Positions 3,502 to 19,491 of a DNA stretch of 37,663 bases are shown piece by piece. The notes below the pieces were generated by a model. It was not told the origin of the DNA, did no database searches, and saw only the letters and a list, made by a program, of their open reading frames with translations. Each line of letters begins with the position of its first letter. Position 1 is the stretch's first letter. The position numbers and the translations under genes were made by a program. This DNA comes from a virus: positions 1-37,663 of IMG/VR virus record IMGVR_UViG_3300045988_100846; one strand, written 5' to 3'.

Positions 3502-3519
3502 AAGCATGAGGTGATAATC

Positions 3520-4578
3520 ATGCCAAAAAGGACAACACTACCACAAATTTATGGCAATTGCAATTTTTTAGTACAAAAGTCAAACCCTCTCCAGTCGCTA
3601 TCAGAGACCAAAATGACGCTTGCAGAGTTTAAAATACTGGATGCGTACTTGTCAAAAATCAATAGTCACAACCCAGAGGAGCGGTGTGTGACGTTTGATA
3701 AGGGTGAGTTGGAGTCGCTGCTGGGCGTTACGCAAATAAAAAACAAGGATTTATCTGACCGGATTGACAATCTTTTTAAGGTTGTTACTATCCAAGACCC
3801 TGACAAACCAAACAAATTTACTAAAATAGCCCTTTTTTCGTGTGCTGAGTGTACGCAGGGGGACGATGGGCTTTGGACAATCAAACTTGCATGCTCGCCA
3901 GAGGCGATGCAATACATTTTTAACATTGAGAGTATCGGCTATTTGAGATACCGTCTAAAAAATGTAGTCAATTTGACATCAAGATACAGTTATATTTTGT
4001 ATTTGTATCTGGAGAGCAACCGCTTTCGGGGGTCGTGGACAATACCACTTGACGACCTTAAAAAAATGCTTTGCTGCACAGCGGACACGTATAGCGAGTA
4101 CAAGCGTTTTAGTACAATGGTGCTTAAAAAATGTCAAAAAGAGTTATCCCAAAAAACCGACATTGATTTTGATTATGTAGCCCTGCGACGTGGTCGCAAA
4201 GTAACAAGCATACAGTTTATACTCAAAACGCCCCAGAACGCCACTGACAGCCCCGTAGAGCCGCTTTTTGAAGAGCGTGATGAATTTGATTGGACAATCA
4301 CTTATGGCTCAGAGAGGCTTGCTACGCTTGCTGAGGGGTGCAATTATGAGTTTAACAAAGCTGAGATGGAGCAAATCGCCCGTGTGCTTGTCCGGATAAA
4401 CATCCCGTGCGACCGGGCAACAAAAAGCGAGTTGTATGGTAAGCAGTTTTATCTCCGTGAAAAATACGCCGTTCTTAATGTTGCAGCGGAAAACAAGCCT
4501 ATAAAAAACAGATTTGTTTATTTTCTGAAAATGCTTGAAAACGATACGTACCAGCCTGCAGCATACAACGTAATATAA
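3520..4578 (+). CDS. Plasmid-type replication initiator (Rep_3 / RepB-like)
   Basis: ATG 3520 has GAGGTG 6 nt upstream. The N-terminus FLVQKSNPLQSLSETKMTLAEFKILDAYLSKIN resembles the Rep_3 initiator signature. Iterons lie immediately upstream. Confidence 0.75.
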   Translation: MPKRTTLPQIYGNCNFLVQKSNPLQSLSETKMTLAEFKILDAYLSKINSHNPEERCVTFDKGELESLLGVTQIKNKDLSDRIDNLFKVVTIQDPDKPNKFTKIALFSCAECTQGDDGLWTIKLACSPEAMQYIFNIESIGYLRYRLKNVVNLTSRYSYILYLYLESNRFRGSWTIPLDDLKKMLCCTADTYSEYKRFSTMVLKKCQKELSQKTDIDFDYVALRRGRKVTSIQFILKTPQNATDSPVEPLFEERDEFDWTITYGSERLATLAEGCNYEFNKAEMEQIARVLVRINIPCDRATKSELYGKQFYLREKYAVLNVAAENKPIKNRFVYFLKMLENDTYQPAAYNVI

Positions 4579-4622
4579 AAACCGCCTCTCAGAGATTTTT
4601 ATCTCCGAGGGGCGGTTTTTTG
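4579..4622. terminator. Strong bidirectional intrinsic terminator after rep
   Basis: Stem accgcctctc/gaggggcggt (one G-U pair) extended by gagat/atctc. It is flanked by an A-run upstream and T6 downstream. Confidence 0.85.
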
Positions 4623-4632
4623 ACTATTTTTA

Positions 4633-4662
4633 TTGACAAAAGCAGTCTGTTTGTGGTATAAT
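4633..4662 (+). promoter_or_regulatory. Consensus sigma-A promoter (TTGACA-N18-TGgTATAAT) with no ORF downstream
   Basis: TTGACA at 4633..4638 and tggTATAAT at 4654..4662. Confidence 0.75.
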
Positions 4663-4668
4663 ATTATT

Positions 4669-4738
4669 GTTGTAAATAATTCAATTCCCTTCGTTCTTTT
4701 TTCTTTCACCGTCTGCCTCTGGCAGGCGGTCTTTTTTT
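4669..4738 (+). ncRNA. Candidate small RNA of about 70 nt (promoter-to-terminator unit)
   Basis: No ATG-initiated ORF between the promoter and a 10-bp-stem terminator (4708..4730) followed by T7 (4732..4738). The T-tract overlaps the stop codon of the convergent gene 4737..5195. Confidence 0.55.
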
Positions 4739-5195
4739 AGTCATCAATGTTATAACTGTAGCTATAACTATCATACAGGCTTGACAACTCATCAGCAGCT
4801 TGCTTTTTGCGGCTGCTGGAGATTGCAGACACGACAATTACATACAGTATAAACGACACAATGGAGGTGATAATCAGCTTTTTACCTCCAGATTTGTCGT
4901 TTTTGCCGACTTGGATGCATCCGAGGACAAGCCCCACAATCGGGATTAAAAACGCAATGACATACATCCACATATCAACATTGCCGGTGTTATGTATCTG
5001 CGACATTGTAGCAGGGTTGTACACAATTGTAGGCATACCACAGTTAGGGCACTCTTTTGTCCGTGGTGAGTAAATCTCTTTGCAATACTCGCAATATCGC
5101 TTTTCACCGGAAATCTGTGACAAATCCGCACCACACTTATAGCACTTGTCGTTCGCTTCTCCATTCATTTCGCCGCAATTTGGGCAAGTTTTCAT
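4737..5195 (-). CDS. Double zinc-ribbon membrane protein, 152 aa, two predicted transmembrane helices
   Basis: ATG 5195 has AGGAG 8 nt upstream. Motifs CPNCG...CYKCG and CEYC...CPNCG are followed by the hydrophobic segments WMYVIAFLIPIVGLVLGCI and LIITSIVSFILYVIVVSAI. Confidence 0.85.
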   Translation of the reverse strand: MKTCPNCGEMNGEANDKCYKCGADLSQISGEKRYCEYCKEIYSPRTKECPNCGMPTIVYNPATMSQIHNTGNVDMWMYVIAFLIPIVGLVLGCIQVGKNDKSGGKKLIITSIVSFILYVIVVSAISSSRKKQAADELSSLYDSYSYSYNIDD

Positions 5196-5245
5196 TTCAA
5201 TCACTCCTGTTTGTTAGGTAAAATTGTTTTACCCTCTTTTACTTT

Positions 5246-5274
5246 ATTATAGCAAGTATCGGATGCAAGAGCAA
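5246..5274 (-). promoter_or_regulatory. Putative promoter (TTGCTC-N17-TATAAT) for the zinc-ribbon membrane gene
   Basis: Reverse complement of 5269..5274 is TTGCTC and of 5246..5251 is TATAAT. Confidence 0.5.
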
Positions 5275-5369
5275 GTTATAACTGATTTTGTAACCGATAT
5301 GTAACTATATTTGGATAAGCTGACAAAATAGCAGCTATAGATTTGCATAAAATAGATAAAAATAGTTAC

Positions 5370-5413
5370 AAAAAACCACCTGTGGAGTGACACGCTTCTG
5401 CAGGTGGTTTTTG
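5370..5413 (-). terminator. Intrinsic terminator after the repressor gene
   Basis: Stem ccacctg / caggtgg (5376..5382 with 5401..5407), with an A-run and a T-run on either side. T6 follows in the minus orientation. Confidence 0.7.
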
Positions 5414-5472
5414 TTTCGGTGATTTTTTAGTGCTGTCCGGACACACTCATTTTTTTAAGGCTTTTGTAAGCA

Positions 5473-5919
5473 TTATGCTCCGCCTTTTGACATAGCCATC
5501 TTTTCTATTTCGTCCTCAATTGTTCCGAGGGCGGTCGATACGGACAATTTACTGCCCTGCGTGCCGTCCGGCTGTTCGTTTTGTCGCCGCTTTGCTGCAT
5601 CACCAAGCTGGACTAAAACATCCATCAAACAAGCACGGATGTTCGGCGGCAGGCTCATGTACTTGTCAATGACATCATCTTCTGATTCCTTGTTGAGATT
5701 CCGTTCTGCAAACGGGTCAGGTGCTGGTTCTCTGCCGAGTAAGTAGTCCGTTGTTACGCCGTAAAAGTCAGCGAGTTTTTGCAACGTATCTGTGCTTACG
5801 TCTCGTTGCCCATACTCATATGTGATATAGGCACGTTCCGTGACCCCGATTGCATCCGCTACTTGTTTTTTTGTAAGCTTTTTTGATTCTCTTAAAAACT
5901 TCATTGTATCTTTAAGCAT
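5473..5919 (-). CDS. cI-type repressor (XRE-family helix-turn-helix), 148 aa
   Basis: ATG 5919 has GGAAGGAGGTGA upstream. LTKKQVADAIGVTERAYITYEYGQRDVSTDTLQKLADFYGVTTDYLLG is a classic HTH_3 motif. It is divergent from the early operon. Confidence 0.9.
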   Translation of the reverse strand: MLKDTMKFLRESKKLTKKQVADAIGVTERAYITYEYGQRDVSTDTLQKLADFYGVTTDYLLGREPAPDPFAERNLNKESEDDVIDKYMSLPPNIRACLMDVLVQLGDAAKRRQNEQPDGTQGSKLSVSTALGTIEDEIEKMAMSKGGA

Positions 5920-5948
5920 TTTATGGTCACCTCCTTCCCACAATCTAT

Positions 5949-5977
5949 ATTATACACAAAATGCGTCTATATGTCAA
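5949..5977 (-). promoter_or_regulatory. Repressor promoter (TTGACA-N17-TATAAT)
   Basis: Reverse complement of 5972..5977 is TTGACA and of 5949..5954 is TATAAT. Confidence 0.8.
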
Positions 5978-6068
5978 TAGGCAATAAGCAAAAAAATCGC
6001 AAATTGTGCGTTTTGCATAATTGATATAAGCACTTTTTGTGCAAATCGTAGAAAGCGTTTGTTTTCTA

Positions 6069-6097
6069 TTGACAAAAGCACAAAATGAGCTTATAAT
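6069..6097 (+). promoter_or_regulatory. Early rightward promoter (TTGACA-N17-TATAAT)
   Basis: TTGACA at 6069..6074 and TATAAT at 6092..6097. A cacaaaatg motif lies in the spacer and again at 6112..6120. Confidence 0.8.
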
Positions 6098-6222
6098 ATA
6101 ACCATAGCAAGCACAAAATGCGTAAGCTAAAAATCAGCCGAGGACAGGCAGCGGAAAACCGAAAGCCACGAGCCAGCGGAAAACCGAAACGCTTGACTGA
6201 AATTAAATAAGGTGGTGAAATA

Positions 6223-6411
6223 ATGAAAAACGATGAAAAAAAGGACACCCTGTATCTGTGCGACCCACAGAAAAACACAGAGTGCCCAAAAGGAAATTGT
6301 CAGATTCCTGACGGCTGTTTTCTTACGATAAAGAAAGAATTTGCAGAAACGTTTGCATCGCTGAAAGATGCACAGCAGCGAATGGAAGACATCAAAAAGT
6401 TGCTTAAATAA
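6223..6411 (+). CDS. Hypothetical small Cys-containing protein, 62 aa, first gene of the early operon
   Basis: ORF with AAGGTGGTGA ribosome binding site. No helix-turn-helix is recognisable, so it is not called Cro. Confidence 0.7.
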   Translation: MKNDEKKDTLYLCDPQKNTECPKGNCQIPDGCFLTIKKEFAETFASLKDAQQRMEDIKKLLK

Positions 6412-6870
6412 CGATGTGGCAGCATCGTAGGCAATTACCTCCTAACTTTGCCTTTATACTACGCTTTGCGGTGAGCGAATCACCGCATAATGGGGTGCGT
6501 CTTAGTTGTCCAGCTGAGATATGAAACCTCTGGACAATGCACGGTGCAACTCCGTGACAGCTGTCTCCGACAGGGAGCATTGTCTATTTCGTTTCCGCTG
6601 TCTTGCTGTGCGGTGCAATTCCGCAGCATTCATCAACGCCCATCGGGAGCGTATCCCGACCCAAGCCTGTCAGTAATCCGTAGACCGTGGATATAAAACA
6701 ACGGTATCGGCTGACTTTAAAACCTTGCAATAGTGGCTTGCATGTTTCCACGACTAGATAAATCGTGCTTCCTGTTGCAGATGGCGATTGCAACACGCTT
6801 CTGAGTCGTTGAGCGTATCAGCGGCATCCCAGCCCGTAAGGGTAAATTGCAATGGCGAAAGCCGGAAAGG
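6412..6870 (+). ncRNA. Candidate large structured non-coding RNA or structured DNA element (class unknown)
   Basis: About 460 nt with only short, overlapping, Cys/Arg-rich ORFs on both strands. At least 12 local helices, including two hairpins with near-identical loops, GNRA-like loops and mutually exclusive 8-bp pairings. Strand is assumed from the surrounding operon. Confidence 0.5.
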
Positions 6871-6880
6871 AGGTGATTTT

Positions 6881-7051
6881 ATGAGCAACGCAAACAGAGC
6901 AACGGAACAGCAGCAGATTACGCAGGTATACCGGAATCTCAGTCCGAGTGACAAAGTGATTTTTGAAACCGTCTTAAATCTGGCTTTTGTTTTACTCAAG
7001 AGCCTACAGCAGACGCAGGACATCGCAGCAACCCAGAAAGAGGAGGGATAA
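6881..7051 (+). CDS. Hypothetical protein, 56 aa
   Basis: ATG 6881 is preceded by GGAAAGGAGGTGA. The longer track ORF from 6788 has no ribosome binding site. Confidence 0.7.
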   Translation: MSNANRATEQQQITQVYRNLSPSDKVIFETVLNLAFVLLKSLQQTQDIAATQKEEG

Positions 7052-7057
7052 CGGCAG

Positions 7058-7288
7058 ATGGGCACGACCCAAAAGCGTGCCCTTTGCACAGACACAAGGG
7101 CATATGCAAAAGGCAGTATTTACATCAAAGACGGGTACAAATACGCCATCTGCGAGCAATGCGGGCTGGATTGGAACGTATCCTGGCAGTTTTCCGGATG
7201 GTATACATGCCCGGTCTGCCGAAACAAAAACAGAAAGGAAAATCAGAAAGATGGGAAAAATCGTTATCAAGACAAACCCGAAGGGTGA
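7058..7288 (+). CDS. Hypothetical zinc-ribbon-like protein, 76 aa
   Basis: GAGGAGGG ribosome binding site. Motifs CEQCG...CPVC. Confidence 0.65.
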   Translation: MGTTQKRALCTDTRAYAKGSIYIKDGYKYAICEQCGLDWNVSWQFSGWYTCPVCRNKNRKENQKDGKNRYQDKPEG

Positions 7289-7487
7289 TACAGCCAGCAT
7301 TGAGGTGAGAGATTTTAAAGAAATTGATGCCGCTGCAATGACCATTTGTGCATTTGTCAAAATCATAAGCGGGCTCAATCGAGAGGATAAAAAGAGTGCC
7401 TTTTATGCAGCTGGCATCATTCTTAAAAGCATTGTAGACAAGGTGGACGACTCTGAGCCAGAGGAGGAGCAATCATGCAAACGATGA
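7251..7487 (+). CDS. Hypothetical protein, 78 aa
   Basis: ATG 7251 lies within the 6987..7487 frame (MGKIVIKTNPKGD...). The ribosome binding site is weak and the ORF overlaps the previous one by 38 nt, so the start is uncertain. Confidence 0.5.
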   Translation: MGKIVIKTNPKGDTASIEVRDFKEIDAAAMTICAFVKIISGLNREDKKSAFYAAGIILKSIVDKVDDSEPEEEQSCKR

Positions 7488-7873
7488 TTTTAGGTGGCAT
7501 TGCTGCTGTTATCTGCTGGGTTGCATGGCAACGGCACAATCACCTACTGGACAAGCAAGCGGCGGATTCCGGCAGAGCATTGAAACCCGTTCCGGTCGGG
7601 TTTGATTATCAGGCAGCACGGGAACAGACTGACCGCATGGAGAGCAATCTCAAGCAGTACGAGCAGTGCAATCAGCTAATCAATGACAGCGTTGTTGCAA
7701 TCAAGACGGGTGAGGGTATGCCTATCGAGATTACTCATTTTGACAACGGCGGAAAACGAGTACATACCACACTGACCGACATTCCGCCGGAGATTGTCAA
7801 TGACTTTGCACATCGACTACTGGACGTTTGTGCAGAGCGATGCAGCAGCACTTCCCCACCGCCAGAAACCTGA
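7475..7873 (+). CDS. Hypothetical protein with N-terminal transmembrane helix, 132 aa
   Basis: ORF overlaps the upstream stop. The N-terminus ILGGIAAVICWVAW is hydrophobic. Confidence 0.7.
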   Translation: MQTMILGGIAAVICWVAWQRHNHLLDKQAADSGRALKPVPVGFDYQAAREQTDRMESNLKQYEQCNQLINDSVVAIKTGEGMPIEITHFDNGGKRVHTTLTDIPPEIVNDFAHRLLDVCAERCSSTSPPPET

Positions 7874-7890
7874 CTTTTTCGGAAGCAGTG

Positions 7891-7933
7891 AGGAAAAGCG
7901 GTAGGAAAAGCAGTCGGAAAAGCCGGCTTTTCC
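7891..7933. repeat. Three 12-bp-spaced GGAAAAGC repeats ending in the palindrome ggaaaagccggcttttcc
   Basis: Read directly at 7891, 7903 and 7915. The palindrome is at 7916..7933. Confidence 0.8.
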
Positions 7934-7960
7934 TCCCGTTTGGGGAGGGGGTGAGAAAAA

Positions 7961-8293
7961 ATGGTCAAGCATTGTCTATTCTGCGGTATTGAGATTGCTG
8001 ACACCAGCTATGATACGCAGGGACGGTTTAACGCAGTCAAATACTGCCAGGAATGTGCAGCGGAGCAAAAGAAGCAAGCAAACAAGAGAAGCCGCCAAAA
8101 ACGCAAAATGGAAAACGCTATCAAGGAAACAACAGAGGTACACGAACTAACCGAAACGGCGAAAGCGTGCCGGACGTTGCGACGGTTGGCGAACCGGGAG
8201 AGCGGATTGCTAAAGCAAAAGATTAACATCTTAACCGTAGAACTGATGCAAGAGCGGGCAAAAAAAGACCCTCGCACTGGCGGCAACCAGTGA
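7961..8293 (+). CDS. Hypothetical zinc-ribbon protein with basic coiled C-terminus, 110 aa
   Basis: GGGGAGGGGGTGA ribosome binding site. Motifs CLFCG...CQEC. Confidence 0.75.
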   Translation: MVKHCLFCGIEIADTSYDTQGRFNAVKYCQECAAEQKKQANKRSRQKRKMENAIKETTEVHELTETAKACRTLRRLANRESGLLKQKINILTVELMQERAKKDPRTGGNQ

Positions 8294-8350
8294 CGAGGGG
8301 ATAAAAACATAACCATTATATAATATAACACAAAAAAGGAGTGTTTGTCA

Positions 8351-8896
8351 ATGAGTAAATTATACGAGATTTCCGGCGATTTTGCCGTACTGTTTGACCA
8401 GCTGGACGACCTGACGGAGCAGGCAGAAGCTGCAGGAGCGTCCGCAGAAGACGCAGAAGCAGCGTGGTTTGACACGCTGGACGCTCTGGAAACAGAGTTT
8501 AACGACAAGGCCGAGAATGTTGCCTTGTACATCAAGGACTTACTTGCAAGAGCAGATGCAATGCACACAGAAGAGCGGCGATTGTCTGACCGCCGGAAAG
8601 CGTGTGAACATCGGGCTGCACACCTGAAAGACTATTTGCAGAACAGCATGACGCAAATGCGACTGAAAAAAGTCGATGGTGTGCGTGCTTGCATCTCCAT
8701 CCGCAACAATCCGCAGTCACTGCAGATTGCGGACGAGGCAGCACTTGTAAAGCAGCTGCAAGCGTCTGACCATGACGACCTGTTGCGGTACAAGCTGCCA
8801 GAGCTGCAAAAGACCAAAATCAAGGCATATTTGCAGGACGGCGGTCAGCTGGATGGATGCCAGCTGGTGCAGACGCAATCCTTGCAAATCCGATAA
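8351..8896 (+). CDS. Siphovirus Gp157-family protein
   Basis: ATG 8351 has AAGGAG 10 nt upstream. The MSKLYEISGDFAVLFDQLDD... N-terminus and its position before a Sak4-like ATPase are typical of Gp157. Confidence 0.75.
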   Translation: MSKLYEISGDFAVLFDQLDDLTEQAEAAGASAEDAEAAWFDTLDALETEFNDKAENVALYIKDLLARADAMHTEERRLSDRRKACEHRAAHLKDYLQNSMTQMRLKKVDGVRACISIRNNPQSLQIADEAALVKQLQASDHDDLLRYKLPELQKTKIKAYLQDGGQLDGCQLVQTQSLQIR

Positions 8897-8909
8897 AGGA
8901 GGTGATGAT

Positions 8910-9533
8910 ATGGGTATCCCTGTTTTAATCATTGGAGAATCCGGCAGCGGCAAGTCTACCAGCCTCCGAAACTTTGAGCCGGGCGAGATTGGTATTTTTA
9001 ATGTTGCAAGCAAGCCGCTCCCGTTTCGCAAAAAGCTGCCGTGTGCCAATGCGGCAGATTATCCGCTGATTGTCCGGACACTGGCACAGCACAACAAGAC
9101 AAAGTACGCGATTGACGACAGTCAGTACTTGCTTGCATTTGAGTTTTTTAACCATGCAAGCGAGAAGGGCTATGAAAAGTTTACCAACATGGCATTAAAT
9201 TTTTACAGCCTTATCCGGTTTATCCAGTTCAAAACGCCTGACAACTGCATTGTGTACTTTTTGCACCACACCGAAACCTCGTATGATGCCGCCGGAAATC
9301 GGCGGCTGAAAGCGAAAACCATTGGAAAAATGCTGGATGAAAAGTTGACGGTTGAGGGCCTATTTTCCATTGTTCTGCTGTGCCAGGCAGATGCGGCAGG
9401 GCGGCACTACTTTCAGACGCAGAGCAACGGCAACAGCACGGCAAAATCTCCTATGGAGCTGTTCCCGGAGGAGATTGACAACGACCTAAAAGCCGTGGAC
9501 AAGGCTATCCGAGAGTACTATCAGCTGGAGTAA
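8910..9533 (+). CDS. Sak4-like / AAA_24 RecA-fold ATPase
   Basis: ATG 8910 has AAAGGAGGTGA upstream. Walker A motif VLIIGESGSGKST near the N-terminus. Confidence 0.8.
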   Translation: MGIPVLIIGESGSGKSTSLRNFEPGEIGIFNVASKPLPFRKKLPCANAADYPLIVRTLAQHNKTKYAIDDSQYLLAFEFFNHASEKGYEKFTNMALNFYSLIRFIQFKTPDNCIVYFLHHTETSYDAAGNRRLKAKTIGKMLDEKLTVEGLFSIVLLCQADAAGRHYFQTQSNGNSTAKSPMELFPEEIDNDLKAVDKAIREYYQLE

Positions 9534-15466: not shown

Positions 15467-15618
15467 ACATGAGCAAAATCAACGCCACGCAAATCCTACC
15501 AATTGCCATGATACTGCTGGATGTTGGTGCAGCAGCGGTTTGTTTGTGGCATAAAGACCACAGACGGGCGGTTTATTGGTTGGCTGCGGCGGTTTTAAAT
15601 GTCACCGTTACGTTTTAA
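15463..15618 (+). CDS. Small two-transmembrane-helix membrane protein, 51 aa (below the ORF-track cutoff)
   Basis: ATGA overlap with the upstream stop. Translation: MNMSKINATQILPIAMILLDVGAAAVCLWHKDHRRAVYWLAAAVLNVTVTF. Confidence 0.55.
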   Translation: MNMSKINATQILPIAMILLDVGAAAVCLWHKDHRRAVYWLAAAVLNVTVTF

Positions 15619-15777
15619 TCACAGCGAGCTGTATTTATCGAGGTAAAGACGCCAAAAGGAAAACCAACCAAGGAGCAAACACATTTTCTGGAGCAGATGC
15701 GGAACGCCGGTGCAGTCGCCGGTGTTTGTAGGAGTGCGGACGAGGCGGTTAGATTGGTGAAGGAGGAAACGACATGA
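15619..15777 (+). pseudogene. 5'-truncated relic of a second VRR-NUC gene (C-terminal 52 codons, no start codon)
   Basis: The frame after TAA 15616..15618 reads SQRAVFIEVKTPKGKPTKEQTHFLEQMRNAGAVAGVCRSADEAVRLVKEETT. This parallels residues about 58..105 of the intact VRR-NUC, and the DNA atcgaggtaaagacgccaaaagg parallels attgaggtaaaaacgccaaaagg at 14509. Confidence 0.8.
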
Positions 15778-16082
15778 ACATGGAACAGCAGCAAAAGCTG
15801 CACGAAATTATAGCAGGACACAGTCTCGAAGAGCAGTTGGAACAAACTATCGAAGAAGCGTCTGAGTTTATCCTTGCGGCACAGAAGCTGAAGCGGTTTC
15901 CACAGGATCAGAAGCGTTTTGATGACCTGTTGGAAGAAACGGCGGACATGCTGATTATGGCAGAGCAGATGTGCTGCTATCTCGGCGAGGAGTATATGGG
16001 GAAGATGATAGACAACAAGCTGGACAGAGAGCTGAAGCGGATGCAAGGGAAAAAAAGAGTGCCGAAAAATGGCGAGTATTAA
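15774..16082 (+). CDS. MazG-like nucleotide pyrophosphohydrolase (copy 1)
   Basis: Small all-helical protein with EExxE and EExAD motifs (TIEEASEF, LEETADMLIM) and a KLDRELKR tail. Confidence 0.6.
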   Translation: MNMEQQQKLHEIIAGHSLEEQLEQTIEEASEFILAAQKLKRFPQDQKRFDDLLEETADMLIMAEQMCCYLGEEYMGKMIDNKLDRELKRMQGKKRVPKNGEY

Positions 16083-16383
16083 GGATTTGAAGAGAATGTG
16101 CAAGACATATAAACATTGTGGTGACGGTTGTCCATTTTGTGGAAGCATGTCTTGCACTCCAAATGAACTATCGGACGATGCAGACGAAATCGTGGGCAAG
16201 TTGGTTGCAAAACACCCTGCAAAGACATATGCTATGGACTTTTTTGAAAAGTTCCCGAATGCACGCAAAGACCCTATTGATGAACCAACTGTGTGTGTGG
16301 CAGATATGTATGGCGTAGATTTTGACTGTCACGATGGCTGTCACGCCTGCTGGAATGAGGTGCTGCCGGATGAACAGCGATAG
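16069..16383 (+). CDS. Hypothetical Cys-rich protein, 104 aa
   Basis: ORF overlaps the upstream gene. Motifs CGDGCPFCG...CHDGCHAC. Confidence 0.65.
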   Translation: MASIKDLKRMCKTYKHCGDGCPFCGSMSCTPNELSDDADEIVGKLVAKHPAKTYAMDFFEKFPNARKDPIDEPTVCVADMYGVDFDCHDGCHACWNEVLPDEQR

Positions 16384-18594: not shown

Positions 18595-18999
18595 ATGACG
18601 AAGGAAGAACTTATGCAGTGCCGCTCGAAACAAAAAGAATTGATGCAGATTGATGACCGGATTGACAAGCTGCGAGCGGATGCACGTAGCACCAAAGCAA
18701 TCTGTTACGGCGATGAGCCTAAGCACCACGGCGAACCGATACCAGCCGTGCAGACCTACATAGAACGGTTGGAGGAGCTGTCAGCCCTTTACGAGGCAAA
18801 AAAAGCAGAGTTGCAAACCAGTATTATCCGTGTAGAGCGTGCAATTTTGTTTTTACCGTCTGATCACGCAGTGCTGATGCGACTACGGTATATTGACGGC
18901 ATGCGGTGGGAGGATGTCAACGACAAACTATTTATTTCAGAAACAAAATCCAAACGCCTGCACCGTGAGGCGTTAAAAATGCTGGAAGATAAAAAATAA
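18595..18999 (+). CDS. Sigma-70 region-4-like late transcriptional regulator (ArpU / RinA / DUF1492-type position)
   Basis: C-terminal LMRLRYIDGMRWEDVNDKLFISETKSKRLHREALKML is a sigma region 4 helix-turn-helix. It is the last early gene before the terminase. Confidence 0.7.
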   Translation: MTKEELMQCRSKQKELMQIDDRIDKLRADARSTKAICYGDEPKHHGEPIPAVQTYIERLEELSALYEAKKAELQTSIIRVERAILFLPSDHAVLMRLRYIDGMRWEDVNDKLFISETKSKRLHREALKMLEDKK

Positions 19000-19051: not shown

Positions 19052-19068
19052 AGTAGCATAGAAAAATG

Positions 19069-19101
19069 AAATCCGGTAGGCGTTCCCTGCCGGATTTTTT
19101 T
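19069..19101 (+). terminator. Strong intrinsic terminator between the late promoter and terS
   Basis: 12-bp stem aaatccggtagg / cctgccggattt (one G-U pair), 5-nt loop, followed by a T-run to 19101. Confidence 0.8.
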
Positions 19102-19125
19102 ATTTACAGTAACGGAGTGGAGGAA

Positions 19126-19491
19126 ATGGCGAATGAGAAGAACTTAATTCCGATGAATGAACGTACAGAGGAAGAACAAAGAGAAATTGCAAGGAAAGGC
19201 GGCATTGCGTCAGGAGCGTCCAGACGGGCGTATAGAAGCTTGAAACAAGCCGCGAAGGCATTTTTTAAGGAAAACGATGACGCTGCTATGCGGATGATTC
19301 AAGCCCTTTACGAAGAGGCTGAAAAAGGCAATGTGAAAGCAATTGACAAGTTGCAAGACCTCATTGGTGAAACCGTACAGCGAGAAGAACTTGCCCTCAA
19401 GAAAAAACAGTTTGCCCAGCAGAACGGACAAAAAAGCGTTGCAGAACTGCCACAACTCTTGCAGGCGTTGCAGGAGGATGATGCAGAGTGA
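19126..19491 (+). CDS. Probable terminase small subunit, 121 aa
   Basis: ATG 19126 has GGAGTGGAGGAA upstream. It is basic and helical (REIARKGGIASGASRR) and overlaps the terL start. The call rests mainly on position. Confidence 0.55.
   Translation: MANEKNLIPMNERTEEEQREIARKGGIASGASRRAYRSLKQAAKAFFKENDDAAMRMIQALYEEAEKGNVKAIDKLQDLIGETVQREELALKKKQFAQQNGQKSVAELPQLLQALQEDDAE

Follow-up and report, generated by a model that had tools for sequence, protein, structure and literature searches.

Mobile elements of Firmicutes are known to carry long structured RNAs near the start of their operons. In the bipartite antitermination system conAn of pLS20-type conjugative plasmids a small first gene, for the protein ConAn1, is followed by conAn2, a structured and poorly conserved cis-acting RNA of 260-600 nt at the start of a very long operon (PMC8191782), and Tn916 carries canT, a multi-stem-loop RNA of 341-452 nt which overlaps a spurious open reading frame (ORF) and acts in one orientation only (PMC11658703). 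Early operons of phages can contain put, an element that consists of RNA alone (PMC9378689). Here we describe an array of structured RNA modules at positions 6411-6880 of the IMG/VR virus record IMGVR_UViG_3300045988_100846, a temperate phage-like genome whose 37,663 nucleotides are referred to as the window. The array follows the first early gene and ends in the Shine-Dalgarno (SD) sequence of the next. It matches no known RNA family and is very probably a genuine family of structured leader RNAs, for which the nearest known systems are functional analogues and not relatives. Structured leader RNAs that act in cis on operons of mobile elements are a known kind; what sets the present one apart is the modular grammar of heads and bodies together with two recurrent loop motifs.

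The array is like conAn and canT in being a long multi-stem-loop non-coding RNA of fixed orientation, overlapped by spurious ORFs, near the start of a long Firmicutes mobile-element operon; from one system to another the sequence is poorly conserved. Its setting also shows the anatomy of conAn, with a promoter (6069-6097), a gene for a 62-aa protein, a structured gap of 469 nt, a packed operon and a Clostridia-type host context. It differs from conAn in that searches down to E<=10 detect no pXO2-34 domain (PF17362) in the 62-aa protein, in two proteins related to it or in five further early proteins, and from both conAn and canT in that it sits in a phage, has modular heads and bodies with an invariant loop and is fused to the SD of the next gene. 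Unlike in conAn, canT, put and EAR, intrinsic terminators downstream of the arrays are depleted on the sense strand.

The lambda nut site is likewise a promoter-proximal RNA site of an early operon, and the heads of the array are boxB-like, with a G-N-R-N-A pentaloop closed by G-C and A-U on four stems. Its boxA, GCUCUUUAACAA, is matched in part by GCCUUUAUACUAACAA when a 5-nt insertion is allowed, and the strand occurs only before the first head. HK022 put, with two hairpins and ~70 nt in all, offers a similar likeness. In contrast to nut and put, three to four heads stand in tandem and also before later cistrons, no terminators are visible, the host is a Clostridia-type Firmicute and there is no sequence relation; in addition no N-like arginine-rich protein was found among the early proteins, and the gene 3' of the array varies between phages. 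In the lambda leader nutL and a large hairpin have a further role, the control of translation of the next gene, N.

Leaders that sequester an SD, including riboswitch platforms, share with the array an upstream anti-SD, alternative local hairpins and structured domains between them. The array differs in having no Rfam aptamer class, optional modules in place of one ligand pocket, no anti-SD/SD covariation and a pairing that is unpredicted for most members. ROOL and GOLLD are also phage-associated, hundreds of nt long and rich in GNRA loops and T-loop-like hairpins, but the array has no Rfam match at any threshold and its separable modules, of 45-170 nt each, lie within an mRNA leader. A single large ornate RNA of the ROOL or GOLLD kind, as considered in a preliminary description of the region made from its letters alone, has to be replaced by a chain of modules, each of which folds on its own and may be missing from a given relative. 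The early mRNAs of T7 and SP82 contain RNase III processing sites, and Firmicutes mRNAs can carry 5' stabilisers. These too are hairpins between the first early cistrons and immediately 5' of the ribosome-binding site (RBS); compared with the T7 and SP82 sites the heads of the array are too short, their loop is invariant and there are extra bodies.

Rfam 15, whose models include ROOL, GOLLD, riboswitches, T-box, ribozymes, EAR, tRNA-like and CRISPR-DR families, gave no match at the gathering thresholds to the window or to six relatives. At E<=10 the region 5900-7100 returned noise only (at most 18.8 bits compared with gathering scores of 48-100), and at E<=5 the fullest related array (L070) had no match and module D, a different leader described below, noise only. 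The earlier suggestion of a new RNA stands, for a structured, non-coding plus-strand RNA without an Rfam match. ARAGORN found no tRNA or tmRNA, and in the literature we found nothing with these motif strings or comparable phage leaders. Hammerhead and other small ribozymes and dimeric DNA operators were rejected from the sequence, as was a CRISPR or ToxI-type array, the repeat being only 9 nt long with 164-174 nt spacing and different flanks and no cas or toxN-type gene being found.

Architecture of the array and its relatives

The array is collinear and consists of H0, LEAD, head A with body A, head B with body B, head C, a GNRA tail and the SD, as follows:

6411-6428, plus strand: hairpin ACGAUG-UGGCAG-CAUCGU, the 3' half of the H0 module
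6430-6461, plus strand: LEAD module, with the stem GGCAA/UUGCC (6430-6434/6448-6452)
6433-6443, plus strand: LEAD loop, an anti-SD AAUUACCUCCU like the 16S 3' end, complementary to the SD region
6448-6461, plus strand: conserved 3' strand of LEAD, UUGCCUUUAUACUA, kept in relatives
6462-6633, plus strand: unit A (172 nt), head and A body
6467-6487, plus strand: A head hairpin, loop GCGAA in GAGCGAAUC (6473-6481), covariance model R2 E=6e-4
6483-6633, plus strand: A body, a long irregular stem with a junction on top (alignment A5, covariance model R1)
6540-6556, plus strand: first T-loop-like hairpin of the A body, loop UGCAACU
6609-6625, plus strand: second T-loop-like hairpin of the A body, loop UGCAAUU
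6634-6791, plus strand: unit B, head and B body
6643-6659, plus strand: B head hairpin, loop GCGUA in GAGCGUAUC (6647-6655), followed by CCCA, R2 E=7e-7
6664-6791, plus strand: B body (128 nt), four hairpins including 6749-6767 and 6774-6794 (alignment A6)
6792-6831, plus strand: head C, CAACACGC followed by the hairpin GUCGUUGA-GCGUA-UCAGCGGC (6805-6825) and AUCCCA, R2 E=0.025
6832-6880, plus strand: tail or expression platform, GNRA hairpins and SD
6832-6843, plus strand: GNRA hairpin GCCC-GUAA-GGGU of the tail, followed by AAAUUGCAAU, loop GUAA or GAAA in relatives
6854-6863, plus strand: second GNRA hairpin of the tail, GGC-GAAA-GCC
6867-6875, plus strand: SD AAGGAGGUG, in the stretch AGGAGGUGAUU (6868-6878) that is complementary to and can pair with LEAD

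In relatives the full H0 reads CUGCUGACCUAYCGGCAACACGGGGACGRUGUGGCAGCAUCGU. Its 5' half (CUGCUGACCUAYCGGCAACACGGGG) is absent from the window, where the C-terminus and stop of the 62-aa gene stand in its place, which suggests that gene and array were joined by a deletion or by recombination. We rejected a promoter inside LEAD (TATACT), as no consistent -35 element is found across variants.

Relatives were collected by protein-anchored and pattern scans of IMG/VR, one metagenome scan and exact-protein look-ups, giving ~150 loci (those named here carry L numbers) with parts of the array, one to four modules in each and mostly from the human gut. DNA searches of INPHARED (cultured phages) and PLSDB (plasmids) gave no similar sequence, and a pattern scan of GTDB genomes gave chance matches only (atpD and other genes). 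In every locus the module order and the sense-strand orientation are the same relative to the flanking early operon, and the array ends 20-45 nt 5' of a start codon. BLAST shows the region to be mosaic, with relatives that join 6461 to 6634 or 6485 to 6792, and when eight sub-modules were mapped over all loci one collinear grammar was obtained: H0, LEAD, an optional unit A, a B head with an optional B body, an optional C head, a tail CCCA..GCCC-GNRA-GGGY, an A-rich linker, the SD and the start codon. Many relatives are without unit A and many without the B body; the window has LEAD-A-B-C-tail without the 5' half of H0. A core is shared by nearly every relative. It consists of the 3' strand of LEAD, CUUUGCCUUUAUACUAAC, a single head hairpin, CCCA and, just 5' of the RBS, a GNRA hairpin; the top of the head, G-A/GCGWA/U-C, is constant, and the stem of the head and the gene behind the core are variable. 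The array measures 244 nt in L247 and ~590 nt in the fullest, L070-type phages, the commonest form is a minimal unit of 135 nt, and shortened "mini-A" units occur.

Conservation of the array stands out from that of its surroundings. In four phages (L070, L112, L099, L186) the sole DNA similarity to window positions 4500-9500 is 6411-6829, at 92-94% identity, with the Cys-rich first gene diverged beyond DNA recognition, which indicates that the array is under strong selection or recently exchanged, probably both. In L225, L177 and L020 the array begins right after the promoter region and is thus a 5' leader, and in L086, L150 and L213 it recurs before the second cistron. The linker GGGUAAUAAAUUAUGAAAGGAUGUUGYUUUAUGGCAA is nearly identical before at least five unrelated genes (L008, L017, L018, L072, L001), placing the recombination junction just after the start codon, so that leader, RBS and start codon move as one unit. 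Two complete units in tandem are seen in L158 (1200-1991, minus strand) and L171 (1-700, minus strand); a mini-A stands at the end of the second, and its closing helix leads into UUUUUUUAUUUUU immediately 5' of the SD, which gives it the appearance of a branched intrinsic terminator or attenuator. In L243 (3190-4508) the variable LEAD loop is the exact site of an insertion sequence (IS) of ~850 nt with DUF4096 and DDE_Tnp_1 ORFs. To one side of it are the promoter and the first gene, to the other an array that is otherwise intact and the same as that of the window.

At the same genomic position sister phages carry module D, a different structured leader of ~190 nt (L015 4433-4625; L020 2895-3100; L179 3290-3490, minus strand; also L016, L019, L021 and L023-L029). 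It has in common with the array of the window only a GG-UGCAACU-CC hairpin and the anti-SD ACCUCCUUUC, and shows a compensatory change in its GCGGCAG/CUGCCGC hairpin.

Evidence for RNA structure, strand and non-coding status

The head motif GAGCGWATC occurs three times in the window where 0.39 copies are expected, always on the plus strand and only in the array region. The two copies of the 9-nt repeat seen in the preliminary description (GAGCGTATC at 6647 and 6811) are real and are joined by a third (GAGCGAATC at 6473); CGGTGCAAYTCCG is also present twice. The motif forms the top of a hairpin with G-C and A-U closing pairs and the pentaloop GCGUA or GCGAA, and sits on stems unrelated in sequence, GCGGU/ACCGC in head A and GUCGG/CCGAC in head B. 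For head C the stem series GCCGUU/AGCGGC, GUCGUU/AGCGGC and GUCGUU/AGCGAC gives a complete path from C-G by way of U·G to U-A. Model R2, which was built from B-type units alone, finds the B, A and C heads of the window (E=7e-7, 6e-4 and 0.025, all on the plus strand and, as for all covariance models built here, rough values), and has no match in 316 kb of sister-phage DNA. A weak minus-strand match of R2, which models head and tail, at 19187-19248 (12.7 bits, E about 0.09, ACGCCCGUCUGGA...UCCUGAC) lies inside a coding region and is probably due to chance.

The alignments are shallow, at 93-95% identity and below the standard of R-scape, and the evidence for structure is consistent and moderately strong. 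For the A body (18 distinct variants, alignment A5) the RNAalifold consensus is a long irregular stem and a junction with three hairpins, 43 pairs in all, and 99.6% of 774 cells are paired as against 37-48% for shifted partners. Twelve pairs are changed on one side yet remain paired, and one double change, from C-G to U-A, is found in four sequences. The B unit (15 variants, alignment A6) has 97.7% of cells paired as against 27-41% when shifted, with double changes at 113/127 (CG 8, UA 6, UG 1) and 140/152. The minimal unit was aligned over 32 variants. In H0 the pairs 43/60 (AU 24, GU 3, GC 2) and 46/57 (AU 24, GU 6, GC 2) covary, the LEAD stem occurs as GGCAA/UUGCC, GGUAA/UUGCC and GGUAA/UUGUC, and the tail loop is GUAA or GAAA with GNRA kept.

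A second constant loop, GG-UGCAAYU-CC, recurs on 5-bp stems of four kinds; two of its occurrences are in the A body and one is in module D. The two near-identical 7-nt loops already noticed by eye belong here and are placed at 6545-6551 and 6614-6620. These three to four hairpins have a 5-bp stem, the loop U-G-C-A-A-Y-U and a G-C closing pair, which we take to match the geometry and sequence of the tRNA T-arm and T-loop (consensus U-G/U-N-R-A).

When the helices named in the preliminary description are tested in homologous phages, where 97-99.6% of cells are paired compared with 27-48% for shifted partners, most of them fall within the modules. The helix at 6411-6428 is the H0 hairpin with its two covarying pairs, those at 6469-6487 and 6644-6658 are the A and B heads, 6533-6540/6577-6584 is helix 5 of the A-body consensus, 6774-6794 shows a compensatory change from GUUGCA/UGCAAC to GUUGUA/UACAAC in L240, and the GGC-GAAA-GCC hairpin at 6854-6863 holds. 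Others are not kept. The helix 6506-6513/6530-6537 belongs to the minimum free energy (MFE) model of the single window sequence, which we rejected as the A-body structure since it has 93.0% of cells paired, with pairs broken in 9-15 of 18 sequences, and fits the family less well than the alignment consensus at 99.6%. The helix 6662-6667/6735-6740 is lost through a 1-nt deletion in half of the variants, 6795-6816 is superseded by the homologous covarying hairpin at 6805-6825, and of the nested elements the hairpin around 6678-6710 is backed by relatives and 6669-6673/6711-6715 only in part.

Folding energy was also compared with dinucleotide shuffles on both strands. The region as a whole stands out (z=-3.4 on the plus strand, -2.5 on the minus strand), but single modules do not (z=-1.1 to -2.0). 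The gain is modest, and the structure is supported by comparison with relatives and not by thermodynamics.

The strand of the RNA is fixed as plus because many conserved pairs are G·U on that strand (A·C on the other). Model R1 of the A body scores 183 bits on the plus strand versus 19.9 bits. With regard to coding, the preliminary description of 6412-6880 as ORF-poor and non-coding is borne out: between the 62-aa gene and the gene at 6881 the 469 nt hold only short overlapping ORFs, and substitutions are spread evenly over the codon positions in all eight ORF frames tested. For the longest, a 68-aa ORF at 6490-6696, the counts by codon position are 8/11/13 in the A-body alignment, a further count being 3/2/2, and the frame is stopped in seven variants (L109, L186, L177, L179, L197, L239, L245). 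The two alignments contain 7+3 indel columns, with 1-nt indels in units A and B. We regard as established the non-coding status, the strand, the modular architecture, the constant loops on covarying stems, the strong conservation and the position of the array.

Proposed gating of the downstream gene and rival explanations

As to function, we rank gating of the SD first, then antitermination, then processing, then decoy or sponge RNAs. In the first case the array would be a cis-acting sense-strand leader of the immediate-early transcript, and would most likely gate the downstream early gene after transcription. The pyrimidine-rich LEAD region, with its anti-SD and its strand complementary to the tail, would in one state base-pair with both tail and SD, so that the array becomes a single closed domain in which the RBS is hidden. 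In the alternative state LEAD and tail would each form their local hairpin and the SD would be accessible. The choice between the states may be made through the constant loops (GCGWA heads, UGCAAYU T-loops, GNRA) if a protein or tertiary contacts dock there, and bodies A and B may be accessory domains. We infer both the control of translation by LEAD pairing and the binding of a factor by the loops, and we hold SD gating tentatively, at somewhat less than an even chance.

LEAD-SD and LEAD-tail pairing are both predicted. LEAD 6433-6443 pairs with SD 6868-6878 over 11 bp in the MFE and centroid structures, with P=1.0 in the partition function, and the SD is paired with LEAD at P>=0.6 in 15 of 56 distinct arrays as against none of 75 control measurements, which were made on 25 genes of the window with three upstream lengths each. 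Module D, whose sequence is unrelated, shows the same succession of a hairpin, ACCUCC, two hairpins and the SD, and RNAalifold predicts the same closure for it, with the SD sequestered at P=0.81-0.99 in L015 and L020. The LEAD 3' strand is complementary to the tail, with 96.8% of cells paired over the 32 variants compared with 34-52% when slid, and this complementarity might give a switch between local hairpins and a long-range closing helix. A riboswitch-like leader for the gene at 6881 had been proposed earlier on the basis of competing helices; the leader is plausible in view of the LEAD-SD pairing, but the competing helices then named are not the conserved ones.

A number of observations weigh against SD gating. 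Not every array is predicted to pair LEAD with the SD (median P=0.04), and the pairing fails where the SD is of the common AAAGGAUG type. LEAD-loop and SD types assort freely, without covariation, and in 3-7 of 25 ordinary genes the SD is likewise paired with a distant upstream partner. The helix of the LEAD 3' strand and tail is without double compensatory changes, and the GAAA variants of the tail loop break it and keep the local GNRA hairpin. Family searches of the early proteins found no partner protein, and folding energies are weakly better than those of shuffles. Gating also leaves the existence of bodies A and B and the invariance of the head loop unexplained.

A processive antitermination RNA in the manner of HK022 put, Bacillus EAR, conAn2 or canT appears unlikely. 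Here the nascent RNA would make polymerase resist pausing and termination over the early operon of ~9-13 kb, and the small first-gene protein might join the RNA on polymerase; in a nut-like version, to be regarded with the same reserve, the LEAD 3' strand would be boxA and the GNRNA-loop heads boxB. The anatomy of a small first gene followed by a long structured cis RNA at the operon start matches the published systems, the array is promoter-proximal, sense, 245-590 nt long and strongly conserved, and the phage has a plasmid-type Rep3 replicon. Judged by the usual boxA and boxB consensus, the short head hairpin, with its G-N-R-N-A pentaloop above covarying stems, is like boxB, and the GCCUUUAUACUAACAA in front of it partly resembles boxA GCUCUUUAACAA. 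However, in 261 kb downstream of 80 distinct arrays there are 7 sense versus 28 antisense intrinsic terminators, and the window has 17 terminator candidates where 16.6 are expected, with the one at 19068-19098 the only strong one; these counts cover intrinsic terminators. Furthermore the search of the early proteins, that of the first gene included, at thresholds up to E<=10 found neither a ConAn1 domain (PF17362) nor an N-like protein, head units recur before the second cistron of one operon, sister phages carry the unrelated module D instead, and the fixed junction with the SD is left unexplained.

Less probable again is an intercistronic punctuation of the early mRNA, in which the A/U-rich strand CUUUAUACUAAC and a stable hairpin would form an endonuclease site, of the RNase Y type or for RNase III on the long A-body stem, and cleavage would split the message and leave a 5'-proximal hairpin protecting the downstream part. 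This would fit the occurrence of CUUUAUACUAAC, head and GNRA hairpin directly before single cistrons, recurring after an intervening gene in L086, L150, L213, L192 and L228, as well as the constant position 20-45 nt 5' of the start codon and the way in which heads flank the bodies like punctuation marks. L225, L177 and L179 in addition have a 5' SD-like AGGAGGUG before the A body in the manner of a STAB-SD. A simple stabiliser, however, could do without T-loops, bodies of 130 nt, an H0 hairpin and a 9-nt loop motif that never varies, the heads of 7-8 bp are too short for RNase III, and the element is found only at the first one to three junctions of the operon, with later genes tightly packed without it.

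It is doubtful, and a little less likely than processing, that bodies A, B and D are trans-acting cargo, that is autonomous small RNAs or protein sponges such as mimics of the tRNA T-arm or of other host RNAs. Infection would yield them before any other product, they would titrate an RNA-binding protein or a defence nuclease of the host, and the heads would be processing or bracketing sites. A cassette variant, which we consider equally doubtful, would have the domains bracketed by the GNRNA-loop hairpin as a common mark for processing, docking or recombination, shuffled between unrelated gut phages and released first to titrate a host factor or nuclease. Constant loops on variable stems in variable copy number are the design of protein sponges such as CsrB and RsmZ, and the T-loop hairpins have exact T-arm geometry. 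The modules are accessory, being present or absent, shuffled between unrelated phages, kept as an island of 92-94% identity, shortened to mini-A versions and tolerant of an IS insertion, and they lie at a promoter-proximal site, where anti-defence functions are often encoded. On the other hand they have no promoter or terminator of their own, are always fused to a downstream SD and gene, resemble no tRNA (ARAGORN), CRISPR repeat or Rfam family and have no known partner.

A structured DNA site, also raised in the preliminary description, is very improbable, whether as operators, as a replication origin or iterons for Rep3 or as linkers serving as recombination points. The heads are inverted repeats, the module boundaries lie at heads and the Rep3 gene is 1.8 kb away, but the half-sites and stems differ between copies under a constant centre, which is the reverse of a dimeric operator, the G·U pairs of the plus strand, the compensatory changes, the operon-bound orientation and the covariance-model matches on the plus strand only all speak against it, the spacing of 164-174 nt is not iteron-like, and head homology of ~7-15 nt is too short to explain conservation of the 130-nt bodies. 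That the array encodes a small protein such as the product of the 68-aa ORF at 6490-6696 is scarcely credible, this ORF being open in many variants with units A and B but having no SD before its ATG, in addition to its even codon positions (8/11/13 and 3/2/2), its stops in seven variants and the 1-nt indels.

Genomic setting and meaning

The array lies to the right of a divergent promoter region whose features are the following:

6069-6097, plus strand: early rightward promoter TTGACA-17-TATAAT, 12/12 consensus match, sigma-70
5949-5977, minus strand: repressor promoter, divergent from the early promoter, 12/12 consensus match, sigma-70
5473-5943, minus strand: XRE repressor gene on the left side, by family match
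6223-6411, plus strand: first early gene, 62-aa Cys-rich protein, its stop codon overlapping the H0 hairpin
6881-7051, plus strand: first gene 3' of the array, 56 aa, no family, strong SD

Judging by its consensus elements, the promoter at 6069-6097 should drive the transcript that contains the array. The right side is a long, tightly packed plus-strand operon for Gp157, a Sak4-like annealing protein, SSB, primase/helicase and helicase, followed by terminase. In place of the gene at 6881 relatives have unrelated genes (XRE/Cro-like regulators, Ant antirepressors and small unfamiliar proteins). The 62-aa protein has no match in Pfam, PHROG, NCBIfam or PDB; it shows the pattern C-x7-C-x4-C-x5-C, and most relatives match its residues 1-43 only (vs L002 4001-4192, L068 4255-4476). 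Its gene does not always adjoin the arrays, and in L002 a convergent minus-strand gene lies between the Cys-rich gene and the array. We rejected the Cys-rich first gene as an obligatory partner, since arrays also stand directly after promoters or other genes and distant homologues of the protein occur without an array.

The 5' untranslated region (6098-6222) carries a direct repeat AG(G/C)CAGCGGAAAACCGAAA twice, 25 nt apart (window 6146-6189), bracketed by an imperfect inverted repeat CAGCCGAG...CUUGACUG; one copy is present in L002 and two in each of L005 and L007, and the repeat might serve as an operator, as a hairpin that stabilises the 5' end or as an RNA site of another kind. A plasmid-type replication initiator with Rep3_N and Rep3_C domains is encoded at 3511-4575 between endolysin and repressor, and its presence, with no integrase recognised in the window, suggests a phage-plasmid lifestyle. 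On the Rep3-equivalent side of L240 there are M78 peptidase and XRE genes plus host-like genes for a dockerin cellulase, NrdD and SASP, which point to a spore-forming Clostridia host. The sole strong plus-strand intrinsic terminator of the window, at 19068-19098 (13-bp stem and T-run), overlaps the start of an ORF (19066-19491) just after a DUF1492 (ArpU/RinA-like) gene (18595-18996) and before the large terminase, a position which probably marks the boundary of early and late genes. The otherwise plus-strand early and middle operon is interrupted by a minus-strand gene for 217 aa without a family match (15615-16268), near which there is a weak terminator-like hairpin on the plus strand (15538-15569).

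The array contributes two new recurrent hairpin motifs, GA-GCGWA-UC and the T-loop-like GG-UGCAAYU-CC, and is a rare natural case in which structured RNA domains are acquired, lost and swapped whole. Gut Clostridia have abundant temperate phages, which have hardly been studied; to our knowledge nothing is known about the control of their immediate-early transcripts, and the array sits exactly at the lysis-lysogeny switch. If modules are released they would represent a new class of phage RNA cargo, an RNA counterpart of the protein anti-defence island. If the array gates the translation or the transcription of antirepressor and Cro-like genes, it would be part of the induction decision in a widespread group of gut phages.

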